From the NCBI GenBank assembly GCA_965261025.1, contig OZ253438.1:540001-572000 (forward strand): a stretch of DNA of 32,000 bases. Reading direction: 5' to 3'. A model generated the notes under the pieces. It was not told where the DNA came from, ran no database searches, and was given only the letters and a program-made list of their open reading frames with translations. A program made the translations under genes and the position numbers. Each line of letters starts with the position of its first letter. Within the stretch, counting starts at the first letter, position 1. Source of the stretch: Chlamydiales bacterium. Its GTDB lineage: Bacteria > Chlamydiota > Chlamydiia > Chlamydiales > SM23-39. Positions 1 through 6,942 of the stretch are shown here, piece after piece.

Positions 1-34
1 GGCACCTGAAAATTTTCGTTTCAAGTGCCTTTTA
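1..34 (+). terminator. Stem-loop at the window edge followed by a short T-run; candidate (possibly bidirectional) terminator
   Basis: GGCACCTGAAA (1-11) pairs with TTTCAAGTGCC (19-29): 11 bp with one C:A mismatch and a 7-nt loop, followed by TTTT (30-33). It lies 13 nt beyond the tRNA-Asn 3' remnant at 43-87. The stem could extend beyond the window. Confidence 0.4.
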
Positions 35-42
35 GTCAAGAT

Positions 43-89: not shown

Positions 90-260
90 TTCCCTTCCAC
101 CCCCCACAACATCAGGCCAATCATAACAACTACAAAATTAAAAAGTTAGACTCTTCTTCTTTGTGGCGGTGATAAGGGATCTCAAACAAAAGATATATCT
201 AAAGCGAAGGACTACTTAAAAGATTACTTAAAGGAGAAGGAAAAACATGCCAAAAAGTAG
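90..260 (+). pseudogene. 5'-truncated, stop-interrupted remnant of a HigB/RelE-superfamily 'addiction module killer' toxin
   Basis: The frame through 150-260 reads TLLLCGGDKGSQTKDISKAKDYLKDYLKEKEKHAKK*. This is the LLCGGDK..Q.KDI..AK C-terminus characteristic of killer proteins encoded upstream of HigA-family antidotes. Its stop (258-260) overlaps the antitoxin start. An in-frame TAG lies at 147-149. The same frame upstream (..IRPIITTKLKS*) keeps family-like spacing but ends at the att repeat, so roughly the N-terminal half is missing. Confidence 0.6.
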
Positions 261-549
261 AAAATACCAAGACTTTTTAATAGAAGAATTAAAAGATCAC
301 GAACAAGCTGTAGCTTACCTTAATGGAGCCTTAGAAGAAAGTCTTAAAGGAGACGAAGAATCTCAAAATCTTTTTCTTCTGGCTCTTAGAAATGTAGCTG
401 AAGCTCAAGGTGGAATTGGAAATTTAGCAAAAAAAGCCCACTTAGGGAGAGAAAGCCTTTATAAGACTCTTTCCGGAAAAGGAAACCCTAGGTGGCATAC
501 ACTGGTTTCTTTAGTTATTGCTTTGGGTTTAAACTTGAGACTCTCCTAA
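247..549 (+). CDS. higA: HigA-family antitoxin (addiction module antidote protein, HTH DNA-binding)
   Basis: This 100-aa protein contains AQGGIGNLAKKAHLGRESLYKTLSGKGNPRWHTLVSLVIALGLNLRL. That matches the family signature ..G...LA...GLSRESLYRALS..GNP.....L.V..ALGL.L. AGGAGAAGG lies 5-6 nt upstream of the ATG. Confidence 0.85.
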   Translation: MPKSRKYQDFLIEELKDHEQAVAYLNGALEESLKGDEESQNLFLLALRNVAEAQGGIGNLAKKAHLGRESLYKTLSGKGNPRWHTLVSLVIALGLNLRLS

Positions 550-559
550 TAGCTTATTA

Positions 560-1162
560 TCACTTCTTCCAATTAGAAGGCTTTGCCGCTCCTCTTGTTT
601 TAGAAGCAATAACAGGCAATGACTGTCCTAGCTTTATAAGATTATTAATAGAAGAAAGACCTTCTGGATGGAGAGTAATTATGCTTTCTTTATGAATAGG
701 GTAATAGGAGGATTTTTCCATACAGCATTGAGTTGCTTTAATAATATCTTCTATAAAAAGCTCAAGACATATAAAAAAATAGCCATGTAAAATAGATAGA
801 TGAGCCTGAACTTGTGAGCGTTTCTGAAAAAATGCTAGAGAGGCAAATAAATCTCCCTCTCTACTTCCTGTTAATTGGTGAAGAAGACTACATCTAAAAT
901 TATGATAATCTTTCGCTTTAACTAGGGGGTCCTGTCCTTGTTTTTCTGTTTGCTTTTGAGAATATATCTTTTTGATGCCGGGAGAAACTTCGTAGTTAGG
1001 TAAATATTCCCGAAACCAACTGCAAAACTTACTTGCAGAGGTTTTTCCATCCTCAGAATCAATCGCTGAAATGACATCTATTGTTGTAAAAGCTCCAAGT
1101 AATGAAAGTAATGGCAAGTCTTGACTCAGTGAACGTTTAAGCTGATCAAGGTAATATTCCAT
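560..1162 (-). CDS. Hypothetical protein, 200 aa, with a HEPN-like Rx4H motif (candidate RNase/toxin-type domain)
   Basis: The ORF has a good SD (AGAGGGAGA, 4 nt before the ATG). It lies 51 nt downstream of fic on the same strand, with no hairpin between them. The motif YHNFRCSLLHQ (R90-x4-H95, nt 878-895) fits the HEPN Rx4-6H signature. I recognise no other family. Confidence 0.35.
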   Translation of the reverse strand: MEYYLDQLKRSLSQDLPLLSLLGAFTTIDVISAIDSEDGKTSASKFCSWFREYLPNYEVSPGIKKIYSQKQTEKQGQDPLVKAKDYHNFRCSLLHQLTGSREGDLFASLAFFQKRSQVQAHLSILHGYFFICLELFIEDIIKATQCCMEKSSYYPIHKESIITLHPEGLSSINNLIKLGQSLPVIASKTRGAAKPSNWKK

Positions 1163-1213
1163 TTAATCTCCCTCTTTTGATTGGTTAAATCTGAGAAATG
1201 ATATTCTTAATCA

Positions 1214-2305
1214 CTATTTCAGCAATTCTTCATATCGAGCTGACAACTTGTACTTGCGCCCCCTATTGGAAAAATCGATAATTGTAAGAAAGTCTTCTTT
1301 TACCCATTGAGAACAAAGAGCTGCACTTGTACGCGACTTATAACCAAATAGCTCCCCTATTTGATGACTTGTAACGACTTCAAATTGTTGAAATAATTCC
1401 AAAACCTTGCGTTGTTTAGGATCAAGTTTTTTTAATAAACTGCTTTGATCAGAAAAACCTTTTTCGCTCGCTTCTGACATATACTTCAAAACGTTTTCGA
1501 AAGAAAAAACCATCCCTTCAACAAAATATTCAATCCATTTTGTAATATCAGCATCCGCTCGTCCCATACAATAGTTATGAGACGTTCCAATACTTATTGC
1601 CTCATAATAAGCTCCCAAGTTACGAGCATAATATTCCTCTAATGAGTAGATTCCTTTTAAGTCATATTCACCTAGATATAAAATCAGCGTTGTAAAAAGC
1701 CTAGCTGTCCTTCCATTTCCATCATAATAAGGGTGAATAGTTGCAAATTGATAGTGAGTAATTGCAGCAATTAAAGGGCAAGGAAGGTCTTTATTGTGAT
1801 TAATCCAGTTTACAAGAGATACCATTAATTTATTAACATCCTTAGCTTCAGGAGGCATATAAATAATCGCTTTAGTTCGAGCGTCTCGAATTACATTCTG
1901 TCCATCACGGTATTTTGATAGCTGTACATTCTGCCTTCCATTAGCCATAACAAGCGCATGCAGGGTTTGAATATGTTTTTCTGTGATTTTTATATTTTTT
2001 GCCGTCCATTTCTCCACCTGCGTTAAAGCTATGTAATACCCCTTAACTTCATGCTCTTCTCGTTCTCTTCCAGGAAAATGTCCTTTATGCTTCACGACTT
2101 CCTGAATCTGATTAGGCTCAAGTTGATTGCCTTCAATCATCGTTGAATAATGTGTCGTGTACAAACGAGCTGTCTCCCTTAAAGAATTCAAAATCATTGG
2201 AGTCACAGGTAAATGCATTACTTTTTCTTTTGCAGACTCAATGCGCATAAGATAGGACATGACTTTAGGAGAAATAGTGTAGTTTGGCTTAAACTTTATC
2301 GGCAT
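1214..2305 (-). CDS. fic: Fic-domain protein (AMPylase-type) with an N-terminal autoinhibitory motif and a C-terminal winged-helix region
   Basis: The Fic active-site motif HPYYDGNGRTAR (residues 191-202, nt 1700-1735) fits HxFx(D/E)GNGRxxR. The Fic_N-type inhibitory motif STMIEG (residues 54-59, nt 2129-2146) fits (S/T)xxxE(G/N). The C-terminal roughly 70 aa (KQRKVLELFQQFEVVTSHQIGELFGYKSRTSAALCSQWV) looks like a wHTH. Confidence 0.9.
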   Translation of the reverse strand: MPIKFKPNYTISPKVMSYLMRIESAKEKVMHLPVTPMILNSLRETARLYTTHYSTMIEGNQLEPNQIQEVVKHKGHFPGREREEHEVKGYYIALTQVEKWTAKNIKITEKHIQTLHALVMANGRQNVQLSKYRDGQNVIRDARTKAIIYMPPEAKDVNKLMVSLVNWINHNKDLPCPLIAAITHYQFATIHPYYDGNGRTARLFTTLILYLGEYDLKGIYSLEEYYARNLGAYYEAISIGTSHNYCMGRADADITKWIEYFVEGMVFSFENVLKYMSEASEKGFSDQSSLLKKLDPKQRKVLELFQQFEVVTSHQIGELFGYKSRTSAALCSQWVKEDFLTIIDFSNRGRKYKLSARYEELLK

Positions 2306-2346
2306 AATAACAGCAATTTATCAGCATATTTTATACATTGTATTAT

Positions 2347-2366
2347 GCAGATAAAACGCAGATAAA
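2347..2366 (-). promoter_or_regulatory. Tandem 9-bp direct repeat (GCAGATAAA x2, 11-bp register) overlapping the likely fic promoter; candidate operator
   Basis: The repeats occupy 2347-2355 and 2358-2366. On the minus strand this reads TTTATCTGC-GT-TTTATCTGC, lying 17 nt upstream of a TACAAT -10-like hexamer (2342->2337) and about 45-60 nt upstream of the fic ATG. Confidence 0.3.
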
Positions 2367-2381
2367 GCCAATAATAAGGGG

Positions 2382-2415
2382 CAAAAAACAGAAACCCACT
2401 CAAAATGAGTGGGTT
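2382..2415 (-). terminator. Rho-independent terminator immediately downstream of tRNA-Asn
   Basis: A perfect 9-bp stem pairs AACCCACTC (2393-2401) with GAGTGGGTT (2407-2415) around a 5-nt loop. On the minus strand it is followed by TCTGTTTTTTG. It starts 5 nt after the tRNA 3' end. Confidence 0.75.
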
Positions 2416-2420
2416 AGAAA

Positions 2421-2492
2421 CTCCGGATGCTTGATTCGAACAAGCGACCAATGGATTAACAGTCCACTGCTCTACCGCTGAGCTAATCCGGA
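2421..2492 (-). tRNA. tRNA-Asn (anticodon GUU)
   Basis: The reverse complement folds by eye as a cloverleaf: TCCGGAT-TA-GCTC-AGCGGT-AGAGC-A-GTGGA-CTGTTAA-TCCAT-TGGTC-GCTTG-TTCGAAT-CAAGC-ATCCGGA-G. All four stems are complementary and the anticodon loop is CT-GTT-AA. CCA is not encoded. Confidence 0.9.
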
Positions 2493-2774: not shown

Positions 2775-4937
2775 ATGGACTCTATAGCTGGTTTCATAGA
2801 AACTATTTTATACGTTAGCCCAGATACGGGTTTTACCATTGCCAAAATTAAGGAAGAAAAGAAAAAAACTCTTACTACTGTTCTCGGTTACATCCCTTCC
2901 GTACAGCCTGGAGAATCTCTACTTTGCAAAGGAAGCTGGAAGAGCCATCCCAAGCATGGCATGCAATTTGAAGTTTCCGAATATGAGATAACAGCTCCTT
3001 CTGATCTTATTGGAATTCAAAAGTATCTAGAATCAGGCCTTATTAAGGGAATTGGTCCTGTATACGCCAAGAAAATTATTCAAAAATTCAAGGAAAGAAC
3101 TCTTGAAATTCTAGAACAGACTCCTTATCGCCTTCTAGAACTTGAAGGAATAGGAAAGAAAAAAATCCAAAGTATCATCCAATGTTGGCAAGAACAAAAA
3201 TCCATCCGTAACGTGATGATTTTCCTGAGAAAGCATGAAGTAAGCCCTGCCTATGCCCAGAAAATCTTCAAAGCTTATGGCCAAGATAGCATAGAGCAGG
3301 TAAAAAAAAATCCCTATCAGCTAGCCAAAGAAGTATTTGGAATCGGCTTTAAAATAGCAGATAGCTTAGCAAAAAACTTAGGATTTGATCCTTCTTCTCC
3401 AGAAAGGCTTCAGGCTGCTTTAGAGTTTTTGTTATGGGATCTTTCTACTGAAGGGCATACCTGCTACCCAGAAAAAGCTCTGATAGAAAAAGCTTCTACT
3501 ATGTTAGAGGTAGAAAAACAGGAGATTGAAAAAAACTTAGCATCTCTTCTACAACTCCACCAAATCCGAAAAGAGAATAAACTTTTAGAAGGGGAAAATA
3601 TCCCCTTTATATGGCTTGCCCTCCTTTATAACAGCGAAAAAACTATCTGCAAAGAAATCACAAGAATTATAGAAGCGCCTTCTGCCATTCGTTCCATAGA
3701 CAAAGAAAAGGCCCTTTCCTGGGTAGAAGAAAAGCTTTTTATTTCTCTAGCAGAAAAACAAAAAGAGGCTCTTTTACAAGCTTTTTTACAAAAAATTCAT
3801 ATCATAACAGGAGGGCCCGGTACAGGAAAGAGTACTATTACGAAAGCGCTGCTTACTATTCTGCAAAAGCTCACTCCTAATTTACTCCTTTGTGCTCCCA
3901 CGGGAAAAGCCGCTAAAAGACTAACACAAATTACCCACAAAAAGGCCTTCACTATCCATAGTTTGCTCGAAATGGACTTTATAAGCGGTGGTTTTAAGAA
4001 AAATCGGAATAACCCTCTTTCTTGTGACTTTTTGATTGTAGATGAAGCTAGTATGATCGATACCTTTTTAATGCTTCATCTTCTCTCTGCTATTCCTTCT
4101 CATTCTCAAGTTCTTTTCATTGGAGACATTGATCAGCTTCCCAGTATTGGTCCGGGATCTGTACTAAAAGATCTTATTGCCTCCCAAAAAATCCCTGTTT
4201 CTACCCTTACTGAAATCTTTCGCCAAGCTTCTTATTCTAGGATTATTTTAAATGCACACCGAATTAACAAAGGAGATTTTCCCGATCTTTTTGAATCAGA
4301 AAAGAGTGATTTCCGTTTTTTTTCTGTGGAAGAACCAGAGAAAATTCAGGAAAAGATCGTAGAGCTTCTTCAGGAAATTCCTCGAAAAAAAAAGTGGAAT
4401 CCTTTGCAAGACATACAGGTGCTTTCTCCTATGAAAAAAGGCCTTATAGGAACAGAGCAATTAAATGAGCTTTTACAAAAAACCCTAAATCCTAGCTCCT
4501 CTCCTTTTTACAGAGGAGGAAGAAAGTTTCACAAGAAGGATAAGGTAATACAGGTCAAAAATAATTATCAAAAAAAAGTATTTAATGGGGACGTAGGCCT
4601 TATAGAAAGAATTGACCTTGCAGAGCAAAGGATGGTTATTTTATTTGAAGAAAAGGAAGTAGAATATGACTTTTCAGAACTAGATGAAATCTCTTTAGCT
4701 TATGCAGTTTCAGTGCATAAATACCAAGGCAGTGAATGCCCTTGTATCCTTATGCCAATTCATACAAGCCATTTTATCCTTTTGCAAAGAAACCTTCTTT
4801 ACACAGCAATAACTCGAGGAAAAAGGCTGGTTCTTCTCGTAGGATCCAAGAAAGCAGTAGCTCTTGCTGTGAAAAATGATAAAGTCTTAAAAAGATTTAC
4901 TGCTTTAGAAGCTTTTTTAAAAGAGTCTATAGCTTGA
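2775..4937 (+). CDS. recD2: RecD2-type ATP-dependent 5'-3' DNA helicase (SF1B)
   Basis: Evidence includes Walker A GGPGTGKST, LIVDEASM, FIGDIDQLPSIGPG, and C-terminal VHKYQGSE..LLYTAITRGK. The N-terminal HhH-rich region is typical of RecD2. The ORF-track start at 2631 is a TTG. The ATG at 2775 (MDSIAGFIETI..) fits the family N-terminus better. Confidence 0.85.
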   Translation: MDSIAGFIETILYVSPDTGFTIAKIKEEKKKTLTTVLGYIPSVQPGESLLCKGSWKSHPKHGMQFEVSEYEITAPSDLIGIQKYLESGLIKGIGPVYAKKIIQKFKERTLEILEQTPYRLLELEGIGKKKIQSIIQCWQEQKSIRNVMIFLRKHEVSPAYAQKIFKAYGQDSIEQVKKNPYQLAKEVFGIGFKIADSLAKNLGFDPSSPERLQAALEFLLWDLSTEGHTCYPEKALIEKASTMLEVEKQEIEKNLASLLQLHQIRKENKLLEGENIPFIWLALLYNSEKTICKEITRIIEAPSAIRSIDKEKALSWVEEKLFISLAEKQKEALLQAFLQKIHIITGGPGTGKSTITKALLTILQKLTPNLLLCAPTGKAAKRLTQITHKKAFTIHSLLEMDFISGGFKKNRNNPLSCDFLIVDEASMIDTFLMLHLLSAIPSHSQVLFIGDIDQLPSIGPGSVLKDLIASQKIPVSTLTEIFRQASYSRIILNAHRINKGDFPDLFESEKSDFRFFSVEEPEKIQEKIVELLQEIPRKKKWNPLQDIQVLSPMKKGLIGTEQLNELLQKTLNPSSSPFYRGGRKFHKKDKVIQVKNNYQKKVFNGDVGLIERIDLAEQRMVILFEEKEVEYDFSELDEISLAYAVSVHKYQGSECPCILMPIHTSHFILLQRNLLYTAITRGKRLVLLVGSKKAVALAVKNDKVLKRFTALEAFLKESIA

Positions 4938-4938
4938 G

Positions 4939-6942
4939 CTAGCTTACAATACTCCCTGCTGGAAGATCTTGGATAGAAGGAAGCTCCAACTTACCAAAAG
5001 ACTCTGCCGCCAAAATCATCCCTTCACTTTCTATTCCCATGATCTTAGCAGGTTTCAAATTAGCAACAAAAAGTACTTTTTTTCCTATTAAATTTTCTAA
5101 AGAAAAATAAGGAGCAATTCCTGATACCACTGTCCTTGTCTCCTTTCCTAAAGAAACTTCTATTTTTAATAACTTATGACTTTTTTCCACCTTCTCTACA
5201 GAAAGAATTTCTGCTATTTTCAGTTTCATTTTTTGAAACTCTTCAAAAGTAATAAAAGGATCTTTAGAAGGGGTATCTCCCTTGAGGTTTTCGAGTTCTT
5301 TTTCCATTTGCGCCTCCTCTATTTTTTGAAAAAGGGTAGTTGGCGTTTGTAGAGGTCCTTCTATTTTTTTCTGGATAGCCTCCTTCCAACTTCCCTGTAA
5401 AAGTCCTTCTAATCCTAAAAACTGCACTATTTTTGAAGCGCTTTCCGGAATAATGGGAAACGAGCTAATAGCCAATAGCTTTACACATTCTAAAAAGGAA
5501 TACAGAACGGAATAAAGTTTTTCTCTATCTTCTTCCCTTTTGAATAGAACCCAGGGTTTTGTTGCATCAAAATAGACATTAGCCTTTTGGGCTAAATTCA
5601 TAATCTCCTGACAAGCCCTTCTAGGAGAAAAAGATTCATAACAAAAAGCGACTTTTTCACAAAGAGCCCTTGCTTCACGAATAAACTTCTTTTCCTCTTC
5701 TAAAAGGGATATTTTAGGAAGAGGCTCATCTCCCCAGACCTTTTTACAAAAAAGGAGCGTTCTATGAACAAAATTCCCTAATTTTCCTAAAAGCTCGCTG
5801 TTGCTCCTCCTTTGAAAATCTTTAAAGCTAAACTCAGAATCAGCTGTCTCCGGGGCATTGGCACAAAGAGCATAGCGAAGCTGGTCTGAGGTATATCTTT
5901 TTAAAAAAGAGGCCAAATCTACAAACCACCCTTCAGATTTAGAAAATTGTTTCCCTTCCAAGAGAAAAAATTCATTGGCAGCAAGAACGTCTACTAGATG
6001 ATAAGGCTTTTTTAATCCCAAAAGCATAGCAGGAAAAAACGCAGCGTGAAAAGGAATATTATCCTTTCCAATAAACTGCACGTAGCAAACCTCTGGATCT
6101 TCCCAAAACTCTTTCCATTTTTCCTTCTCTCCTATTTTTTCTGCCCATTCTTGCGTTGCAGAAAGATAACCTATAGGAGCATCAAACCATACATAAAAAA
6201 CTTTATCCTTGGCCTCTTTTAAAGGAACCTCTACTCCCCAAGAAGAATCCCTTGTAATTGCCCTCGGCCTCAACTCTTCGATATAGTTTTTTGCAAAGCT
6301 CAGTACAGATTCCTTCCAAGGCTTTTCTTTAATCCATAAAAGAAGCTTTTCCTTGAAAAGGTCTAGTCTTAAATACCAGTGAAGACTCTCTTTTAAAACC
6401 AAAGAAGATCCAGTTAAGCTCGACCTTGGTTTGATCAGCTGTTCCGCTTCAAAACTAGCTCCACATTGGGGGCATTCATCTCCTCTAGCCTTTTCATAAG
6501 AACATTTAGGGCAGACACCCACTACATACCTATCTGCTAAAAACTTGCCTTCTTTTGAAGAGTAAAGATGGTTTTTCTTCTTCTTTTCTATATAGCCATT
6601 TTTCTCCATCTCCAAAAACATCTCTTGAACTAAGGGCTTATGAAATTGATTAGTGGTTCTCGAATAATGATCAAAAGAAATCTGCATGGAAGCAAGTAAC
6701 GAGGCATTCAGGGTATGAAAAAATTCTATATACTCCTGATAGGTTTTCCCTTCTTTTTCTGCATTCAAAGTAATAGGAAGACCATATTCATCAGACCCTG
6801 AGAGGAACAAAACCTTCTTATTTTGCATTCTTTGGAATCTAGCGTATACATCTGCTGGTAGAAAAGCCCCTGCCAAATGGCCAAAATGAAGGGGGCCGTT
6901 AGCATATAAAAGAGCTGCGGTAATAAGAACCTTTTGCTCCAT
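4939..6942 (-). CDS. metG: Methionyl-tRNA synthetase with a C-terminal tRNA-binding (Trbp111-like) domain
   Basis: The class I HIGH variant HFGHLAG and the KMSKS variant KFSKS are present. There is a zinc knuckle CPKC..CPQC. The C-terminal motif is LKIAEILSVEKVEKSHKLLKIEV. Confidence 0.95.
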   Translation of the reverse strand: MEQKVLITAALLYANGPLHFGHLAGAFLPADVYARFQRMQNKKVLFLSGSDEYGLPITLNAEKEGKTYQEYIEFFHTLNASLLASMQISFDHYSRTTNQFHKPLVQEMFLEMEKNGYIEKKKKNHLYSSKEGKFLADRYVVGVCPKCSYEKARGDECPQCGASFEAEQLIKPRSSLTGSSLVLKESLHWYLRLDLFKEKLLLWIKEKPWKESVLSFAKNYIEELRPRAITRDSSWGVEVPLKEAKDKVFYVWFDAPIGYLSATQEWAEKIGEKEKWKEFWEDPEVCYVQFIGKDNIPFHAAFFPAMLLGLKKPYHLVDVLAANEFFLLEGKQFSKSEGWFVDLASFLKRYTSDQLRYALCANAPETADSEFSFKDFQRRSNSELLGKLGNFVHRTLLFCKKVWGDEPLPKISLLEEEKKFIREARALCEKVAFCYESFSPRRACQEIMNLAQKANVYFDATKPWVLFKREEDREKLYSVLYSFLECVKLLAISSFPIIPESASKIVQFLGLEGLLQGSWKEAIQKKIEGPLQTPTTLFQKIEEAQMEKELENLKGDTPSKDPFITFEEFQKMKLKIAEILSVEKVEKSHKLLKIEVSLGKETRTVVSGIAPYFSLENLIGKKVLFVANLKPAKIMGIESEGMILAAESFGKLELPSIQDLPAGSIVS

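Follow-up and report, generated by a model that had tools for sequence, protein, structure and literature searches.

Class II Fic proteins are defined by an N-terminal inhibitory helix in the same polypeptide (PMC12249575), and one of them, SoFic, is reported to provide one-gene anti-phage defence by abortive infection (Millman et al. 2022; PMC12249575). Abortive infection is also the mode of action of HepS ('HEPN Solo'), an anticodon nuclease of the Salmonella prophage Gifsy-1 whose oligomer is inactive until opened by a phage protein and then acts as an RNase (PMC13043305). HEPN proteins more widely, a superfamily that includes solitary Abi-type members, carry an Rx4-6H motif where core helix 3 closes and the following loop starts, an acidic residue in helix 2 that is close to the motif and often forms an Ex3[KR], usually a polar N, D or H directly after the Arg, and, separating helices 2 and 3, an insert that varies (Anantharaman et al. 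2013, PMC3710099). Also characteristic of the superfamily are an up-down bundle of four helices and metal-independent RNase activity from a composite site in a dimer. Here we analyse two neighbouring genes of an uncultured Chlamydiales bacterium, located in a 32,000-nucleotide (nt) stretch of GenBank assembly GCA_965261025.1 (contig OZ253438.1, forward-strand positions 540,001 to 572,000) that we refer to as the window and within which all coordinates are given unless a relative is named. The genes are fic (1214-2305, minus strand), encoding a class II, SoFic-like Fic of 363 amino acids, and downstream of it a 200-amino-acid open reading frame (ORF; 560-1162, minus strand), a candidate stand-alone HEPN-like RNase or abortive-infection effector.

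An initial annotation had read this pair as a possible new conflict or defence module, or else as a pair of host-targeting effectors. The account that we favour, and hold with moderate confidence, is that they are independent single-gene cassettes, a SoFic-like Fic and a solitary, probably HEPN-like RNase or abortive-infection gene, which were joined by serial insertion at a tRNA-Asn hotspot.

Independence of the two genes

Fic and the ORF do not form a conserved two-gene system. Six-frame translation of 105 loci bearing ORF homologs (946 kb) returned no Fic motif at all, and no Fic neighbour was seen for the closest homolog (P0013) or the next ones (P0015 and P0017). The closest homolog, at ~44-50% identity depending on the method, is found at the same tRNA-Asn hotspot, without Fic. 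Nor does the ORF family travel with any other gene: all-against-all BLAST of the neighbours in 47 genome loci found no recurrent partner, and among 149 neighbours scanned against Pfam and PADLOC no family turned up at more than three loci. These 149 proteins are a housekeeping mix with a few of defence type, namely Abi_alpha, AbiEi, mad2 and PD-T4-6.

The same independence is seen from the side of Fic. Two metagenome contigs, L001 and L002, encode a Fic with 89.8% protein identity to that of the window (same 90%-identity cluster), followed after ~430 nt by an S41 peptidase gene and with no 200-residue ORF. At the nucleotide level the shared Fic cassette covers 1174-2431 (minus strand) at 86.7% identity, and the homology ends at 1174, inside the Fic-ORF spacer and 12 nt before the ATG of the ORF. 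In both contigs a direct repeat of 28-55 nt (AAGTTCGWA...CCARYAACTGGAG) stands on either side of the Fic segment, with three copies per contig (L001 5010-5037, 5858-5885 and 7130-7157; L002 909-936, 1757-1784 and 3029-3056), and because of these repeats we regard Fic as a self-contained cassette. The repeat is absent from the window.

At the junction itself the initial annotation was accurate. It had described a same-strand pair, without naming the strand, separated by 51 nt with no hairpin and with a strong Shine-Dalgarno site before the ORF; both genes are on the minus strand, and the spacer (1163-1213, minus strand) is exactly 51 nt long. Its folding is at the level of shuffled sequence (z=0.06), no terminator-like site was found in it, and its 3' end reads AAGAGGGAGATTAA-ATG (GAGGGAGATTAA-ATG), a good Shine-Dalgarno site (GAGGGAG) for the ORF. 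As the junction left no terminator, Fic and the ORF are probably co-transcribed in the window, each remaining independent of the other. We also considered whether this Shine-Dalgarno site derives from a 'GGAG' in the attachment (att) sequence described below, an idea that is unsupported, the ATG of the homolog in the related genome L004 being ~20 nt away from 'GGAG'.

The fic gene is an ordinary member of an already known Fic type. Its active-site motif, HxFx(D/E)GNGRxxR, is found as HPYYDGNGRTAR at residues 191-202 (catalytic H191), with Tyr replacing Phe, and its inhibitory motif, (S/T)xxxE(G/N), as STMIEG at residues 54-59, so both motifs named at the outset are present. Since the inhibitory helix lies N-terminal to the Fic core in the same chain, the protein is, on sequence criteria, a class II Fic resembling SoFic. 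It matches Pfam Fic (E=1.4e-19), PHROG 5978 and, over nearly its full length, the PADLOC SoFic model (E=4.3e-51; residues 22-353 against model positions 29-349 of 361). With SoFic it shares the Fic motif, the N-terminal inhibitory helix, a size of ~360 amino acids with a C-terminal domain and this full-length PADLOC match, whereas it scores 65.3 bits against the NCBIfam SoFic equivalog NF046030, under the cutoff of 550, and among solved structures its best relatives by sequence are the bacterial Fic 4rgl and the FICD AMP-transferases rather than S. oneidensis SoFic. The C-terminal match of helix-turn-helix (HTH) type is weak (Sigma70_r4, residues 290-321, E=0.004). The window Fic also lacks a small ORF like the AS1 of E. 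coli SoFic, and a defence role in the chlamydial host is putative. A small AS1-like ORF was likewise sought downstream of Fic in L001 and L002, and no convincing candidate was seen.

An integration hotspot at tRNA-Asn

The two genes lie on what had been called a tRNA islet, and its ends can now be given. The tRNA-Asn (GTT) gene occupies 2421-2492 (minus strand), and its 3' 45 nt (2421-2465), the proximal att site, recur as a direct repeat at 43-87 (44 of 45 nt identical), which marks the left boundary of the islet. Between these tRNA-Asn-derived repeats lies a cargo of ~2.3 kb in which neither the ORF list nor a Pfam scan revealed an integrase. The G+C content is 35.6% within the islet and 37.8% outside it, and the rest of the window consists of core genes (RecD2, MetRS, YicC, Ffh, RF1, PNPase, a 909-amino-acid FtsH, TilS and LptF/G). 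Those homologs of its MetRS that bear names belong to Chlamydiae, Chlamydiales, Simkaniaceae and Anoxychlamydiales, the closest at 76% identity, which places the organism as a deep-branching member of the Chlamydiota.

Two related genomes carry other cargo at this site. In the closest relative (L109, GCA_964351495.1) core synteny is the same as in the window up to RecD2 and tRNA-Asn; 3' of the tRNA stands a 7.5-kb element encoding a tyrosine integrase and HNH, T5orf172 and DUF3987 proteins, and its flanks (L109 14278-14322 and 21871-21914) are exact 44-45-nt copies of the att core of the window. The second relative (L004, GCA_018333475.1) has tRNA-Asn followed by a 3.6-kb island that ends in a 94% copy of the tRNA 3' end, and past this closing copy come a homolog of the 200-residue ORF and several toxin-antitoxin pairs. 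Three genomes thus show three cargos at one tRNA-Asn site beside RecD2, which makes it a genuine integration hotspot. The 44-45-nt segment is the att core shared by a family of elements whose target in this chlamydial lineage is tRNA-Asn, and the islet of the window is an integrase-less, partly decayed product of the hotspot. It resembles other integrase-less, att-flanked tRNA islets (remnants like cis-mobilizable elements) in that 45-nt tRNA-Asn repeats bound 2.3 kb of cargo only, and differs from them by its decay, seen as a truncated toxin gene; its mobility is putative.

The hotspot matters beyond the two genes in question. The locus documents an active tRNA-Asn site, its att core 45 nt long, in a chlamydial lineage that branches deeply, and so bears on how reduced intracellular genomes still gain mobile conflict genes.

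The L004 locus also has a minimal nucleotidyltransferase (MNT) gene ~300 nt from the ORF homolog, in divergent orientation and with an att copy between them (L004 5404-5706 and 6001-6588). MNT is the usual antitoxin partner of HEPN. The arrangement does not recur in the family, and we judge it coincidental.

The repeat that brackets Fic in L001 and L002 is found in L004 too, on both sides of a BrnT/BrnA pair (L004 7653-7687 and 8801-8835). Its conserved part is ~28-35 nt long and includes a small CCAG/CTGG palindrome. The repeat looks like the 3' end of a tRNA and lies between consecutive single-gene or toxin-antitoxin cassettes (a 108-amino-acid gene, Fic, BrnT/BrnA), in one orientation throughout. 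The repeat-separated genes of these three sequences look like a cassette array. L001 further encodes (1-1322 and 4110-4970) a Schlafen/AlbA_2 plus HATPase_c_4 protein, a Bro-N protein and an 82%-identical fragment of the antitoxin gene of the window, content that points to a related mobile-gene hotspot with shuffled genes.

A conserved family in phages and islets

The ORF is a real and conserved gene. It was initially described as belonging to no recognisable family, which is correct for Pfam, NCBIfam and PADLOC, none of which has a model for it, and needs amending for phages, as the protein belongs to phrog_18591 (function unknown; E=2.4e-14). A word-indexed homolog search with the single protein returned only itself and one marginal match, while an exhaustive search gave 98 family representatives at the 50% identity level (E<=1e-3) and a profile search gave 333 clusters at the 90% identity level. 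Where these proteins are named at all they are called 'hypothetical protein', and Pfam assigns no domain to any of them. Most are single-domain proteins of 160-190 amino acids. We discarded the notion that the window copy is a pseudogene, all the invariant and nearly all the near-invariant residues of the family being intact in it.

The distribution is wide. A survey of genome loci, made with a 15-sequence subset of the family alignment, placed the family at 55 loci in Nitrospirota, Chloroflexota, Acidobacteriota, Verrucomicrobiota, Planctomycetota, Firmicutes and many Proteobacteria (Legionella anisa and Pseudoalteromonas among them), as well as in many lineages of the candidate phyla radiation (CPR), in Bathyarchaeota and in Pacearchaeota. 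A plasmid search produced only eight matches, all of them 'hypothetical protein' or unannotated stretches.

Phages carry the gene as well. There are 37 cultured-phage records with a family gene, 35 of them from Arthrobacter phages; the copy of Arthrobacter phage Bridgette has the lysis genes on one side and the integrases on the other, and is reversed relative to its upstream neighbours. Another 36 copies were found in IMG/VR viral contigs, and in ~28 of these, which are related to one another (L075-L103), the gene stands in inverted orientation between the holin and endolysin genes, so that the lysis cassette is split. One such contig that was examined, L088 (3087-5283), has an integrase ~1.5 kb from the family gene. 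Inverted sites next to holin and endolysin genes or to an integrase are the classic 'moron' positions of genes expressed from prophages.

The HEPN-like character of the ORF had been proposed from one short motif, YHNFRCSLLHQ, which is present at residues 86-96 and places R90 and H95 in an Rx4H arrangement. A single Rx4H in 200 residues has a chance expectation of ~0.19, so on its own it says little. The family alignment (111 sequences, mean column identity 31%) has W49, R90 and H95 as its only invariant columns, and since both motif residues are among these three, the Rx4H is more than chance. D29, C91, L94, Q96 and H121 are among the other positions conserved in at least 90% of sequences. Of the viral-contig copies, 34 of the 36 have the motif.

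Structure prediction gave confident models, both for the window protein (AlphaFold2, pLDDT 87.7, pTM 0.84) and for a compact family member, P0111 (pLDDT 96.5, pTM 0.90). In the models, helix 1 is followed by helix 2, which carries D29, and by an insert whose short helix bears W49; then come a helix that closes with R-x4-H, a beta segment of three strands, a long helix and a small part at the C-terminus. The motif is predicted at the C-terminal end of helix 83-96 in the window protein and of helix 64-77 in P0111 (R71/H76), and D29 falls in helix 17-34, outside any Ex3[KR] motif. As modelled, the order of the elements and the Asp of helix 2 would fit the published HEPN layout. A Foldseek search of the PDB, which the initial annotation had proposed for the 200-residue protein, placed, with the P0111 model, two HEPN-containing proteins in its top five, 2hsb (the HEPN protein AF_0298) and 6qzt (Csx1), at scores to which we return below.

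Described systems can be set beside this family. HepS is likewise a single small protein with an Rx4H (R100-H105, against R90-H95 in the ORF), found as an accessory gene in temperate phages with no conserved partner and with a wide, patchy spread. HepS has Asn after the Arg where the ORF family has Cys, and the family differs further by its beta segment after the motif helix and its C-terminal extension; the two are likened by description only. For the ORF, neither sequence searches nor Foldseek gave a detectable similarity to a PDB entry, and its activity, trigger and oligomeric state are putative. In the Gifsy-1 record of strain LT2, no translated ORF has an Rx4H at residues 100-105. Compared with the HEPN superfamily at large, Abi-type solitary proteins included (Anantharaman et al. 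2013, PMC3710099), the ORF shares, as modelled, the motif at a helix end, an acid in helix 2 and the insert between helices 2 and 3, and also a family presence in mobile and conflict contexts; it differs in having no match to a HEPN model of Pfam or NCBIfam even at a weak level, Cys after the Arg, no Ex3[KR] and a long beta insert.

A further likeness is local. In 9 of 110 members, including P0217 (73-104), P0185 (78-104) and P0035 (93-113), the Rx4H helix weakly matches the profile of Dazbog DzbB (PADLOC PDLC03836) at ~278-314 of its 341 positions (best E=2e-4), an alignment of ~30 residues. DzbB is about twice the length of the ORF family, and the window protein itself does not match it. The full Dazbog system comprises DzbA and DzbB; the family has no full-length DzbB homology, there is no DUF262 neighbour, and DzbA (DUF262, DGQQR motif) was found in none of the family-bearing loci.

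We also looked at AcrVIA1 (6vrb_C), whose residues 42-74 align with profile positions 41-80 at E=0.63 (KYNKWF...YSFRCHLL; shared pattern KYxxWF...YxFRCxLL). The alignment ends before the His, 6vrb appears in neither Foldseek run and the fragment is missing from the phage collection, so the likeness was dropped as probably due to chance.

Proposed mechanism and alternatives

We propose that serial insertion and deletion at the tRNA-Asn hotspot of this uncultured member of the Chlamydiota would have brought Fic and the ORF together. Fic would be an AMP-transferase whose H191 active site is blocked by its own N-terminal helix (S54-G59) and, acting like SoFic, it would be latent and turn toxic once auto-inhibition is released. 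The ORF family would spread on temperate phages, in their 'moron' positions, and on genomic islets. Its R90-x4-H95 together with Asp29 may form a metal-independent RNase site of HEPN type, probably completed across a homodimer, and the protein could stay latent until a phage or stress cue arrives, then cut RNA so that growth stops, as in HepS. Co-transcription of the two genes in the window would then probably be an accident of insertion. Membership of the family in the HEPN superfamily seems to us slightly better than an even call. A fuller proposal, that these are unrecognised, divergent stand-alone proteins of RNase type serving abortive infection or defence, carried as 'morons' on temperate phages and on tRNA islets and possibly sharing a catalytic helix with DzbB, is more tentative, and we offer it as plausible rather than probable.

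It also should be considered that several observations weigh against these proposals. Near-perfect att repeats enclose both Fic and the ORF, so the two may now move and be transcribed as a unit. The structural matches to HEPN proteins are non-significant (2hsb at E=1.9, probability 0.20, TM 0.44; 6qzt at E=4.8), and the model of the window protein itself found nothing in the PDB with Foldseek. By sequence, no HEPN match at E<=1 was obtained against Pfam (55 members) or NCBIfam (110 members) or in a PDB profile search; a PDB sequence search returned nothing of use either for the single protein or for the family profile. Cys91, conserved in at least 90% of the family, follows the Arg in place of N, D or H; in the models, ~37 residues of beta structure lie between the motif helix and the long helix that comes next, and the C-terminus has an additional region. 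The family may therefore have a fold other than HEPN. For the defence role, what speaks for it is gene position and analogy, and the neighbours of the genomic copies are mostly housekeeping genes, with defence genes sporadic.

How far, then, do other explanations account for the locus? Because the confident family models have no significant match among solved structures, one has to weigh that the proteins are not HEPN RNases but, for example, metal-dependent hydrolases (using D29, C91, H95 and H121), accessory proteins for superinfection exclusion or lysis timing, or anti-defence proteins, with the Rx4H playing a structural or ligand-binding part. The conserved C91, Q96, H121 and D132 and the beta segment are atypical of HEPN, the gene often lies within phage lysis cassettes, and the weak similarity of the motif helix is to the C-terminus of DzbB. 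Yet the helix 1-helix 2 hairpin, the insert, a helix 3 that ends in the motif, the next long helix and the helix-2 acid fit the HEPN definition, the only fold matches with any probability are HEPN proteins, and bacteria, archaea and islets also carry the gene at places remote from lysis genes, which makes a lysis-specific role unlikely. Overall we consider a non-HEPN identity unlikely, though it deserves to be taken seriously.

A functional Fic-ORF module, in which the ORF would be an antitoxin or regulator like AS1 or else a co-triggered second effector, is highly improbable. The close, terminator-free junction on one strand, with its strong Shine-Dalgarno site and the single pair of near-perfect att repeats around both genes, is what such a module would look like, and a downstream antitoxin, the 47-amino-acid AS1, has been reported for E. 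coli SoFic (PMC12249575). The Fic-inhibitory pattern (S/T)xxxE(G/N) even has a match in the ORF, TGSREG (residues 98-103). But co-occurrence is absent in either direction, homology to the other Fic cassettes stops before the ORF, and the ORF family is solitary everywhere else. TGSREG is missing from the family consensus (GSSQH...) and may be a chance match, TLHPEG (163-168) fits no better, the window Fic already has an inhibitory helix of its own, and AS1 is unrelated in size to the ORF. Less credible still, to the point that we give it very little weight, is that one or both proteins are secreted effectors against the eukaryotic host of an obligate intracellular chlamydial bacterium. The organism does fall within the Chlamydiota and its relatives carry TLC and CT398 genes; several pathogens use Fic AMP-transferases on their hosts (PMC12249575), and Fic has a weak XopAC match in the NCBIfam scan (E=9e-7). 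Against this, Fic is a full-length bacterial protein of SoFic type with an inhibitory helix and an HTH-like C-terminal region, on an islet with toxin-antitoxin debris; the presence of the ORF family in free-living bacteria, archaea, CPR bacteria and phages argues for a role internal to prokaryotes, and we saw neither a secretion signal nor a domain of eukaryotic type in the proteins.

Since 'Fic + HEPN' is not a conserved unit, it is not worth pursuing as a new two-gene defence system. The ORF family is another matter. With an invariant Rx4H, a structure predicted at very high confidence, a position typical of prophage accessory genes and no Pfam, NCBIfam or PADLOC model, it is a well-defined candidate, and if it does act as a solo RNase defence like HepS, it would be a new family of single-gene immunity, one that the defence finders now in use overlook. 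It might in that case also offer a handle on the biochemistry of DzbB.

Further features of the islet

The rest of the islet cargo is toxin-antitoxin debris. At 150-260 (plus strand) lies the 5'-truncated remnant of a Gp49/HI1419-type (HigB-like) toxin gene, consisting of its last 36 codons (TLLLCGGDKGSQTKDISKAKDYLKDYLKEKEKHAKK*) preceded by a stop codon; its translation corresponds to the C-terminal end of the toxin that L004 encodes intact (VLLLLGGNKNGQSKDINQAKK...). It runs into an intact but orphan HTH antitoxin gene, close to the islet boundary, of the dnstrm_HI1420 family (247-549, plus strand; Pfam PF21716, E=3.6e-16; TIGR02684, 60.1 bits against a cutoff of 53.7). A type II HI1419/HI1420 system has an intact toxin gene upstream of the antitoxin, whereas here only those 36 toxin codons are left. 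The antitoxin gene is convergent with the 200-residue ORF, and L004 has a copy of it (70-77% protein identity) that is likewise convergent to the ORF homolog; this pairing of ORF and HI1420 antitoxin, seen in the window and in L004, was not found across the wider ORF family.

Few signals for transcription stand out. A promoter-like site 5' of fic (TTGGCT-18-CATAAT, 2342-2371, minus strand) is a consensus match only, the count of such sites in the region being no higher than expected from shuffled sequence. Right after tRNA-Asn there is a terminator-like hairpin with a T-run (2393-2415, minus strand), which is kept in the Fic cassette of L001 and L002. Just beyond the distal att copy, window positions 1-42 hold a sequence that can form a perfect hairpin (GGCACCTGAAAATTTTCGTTTCAAGTGCC) and probably serves the flanking core gene as its terminator.

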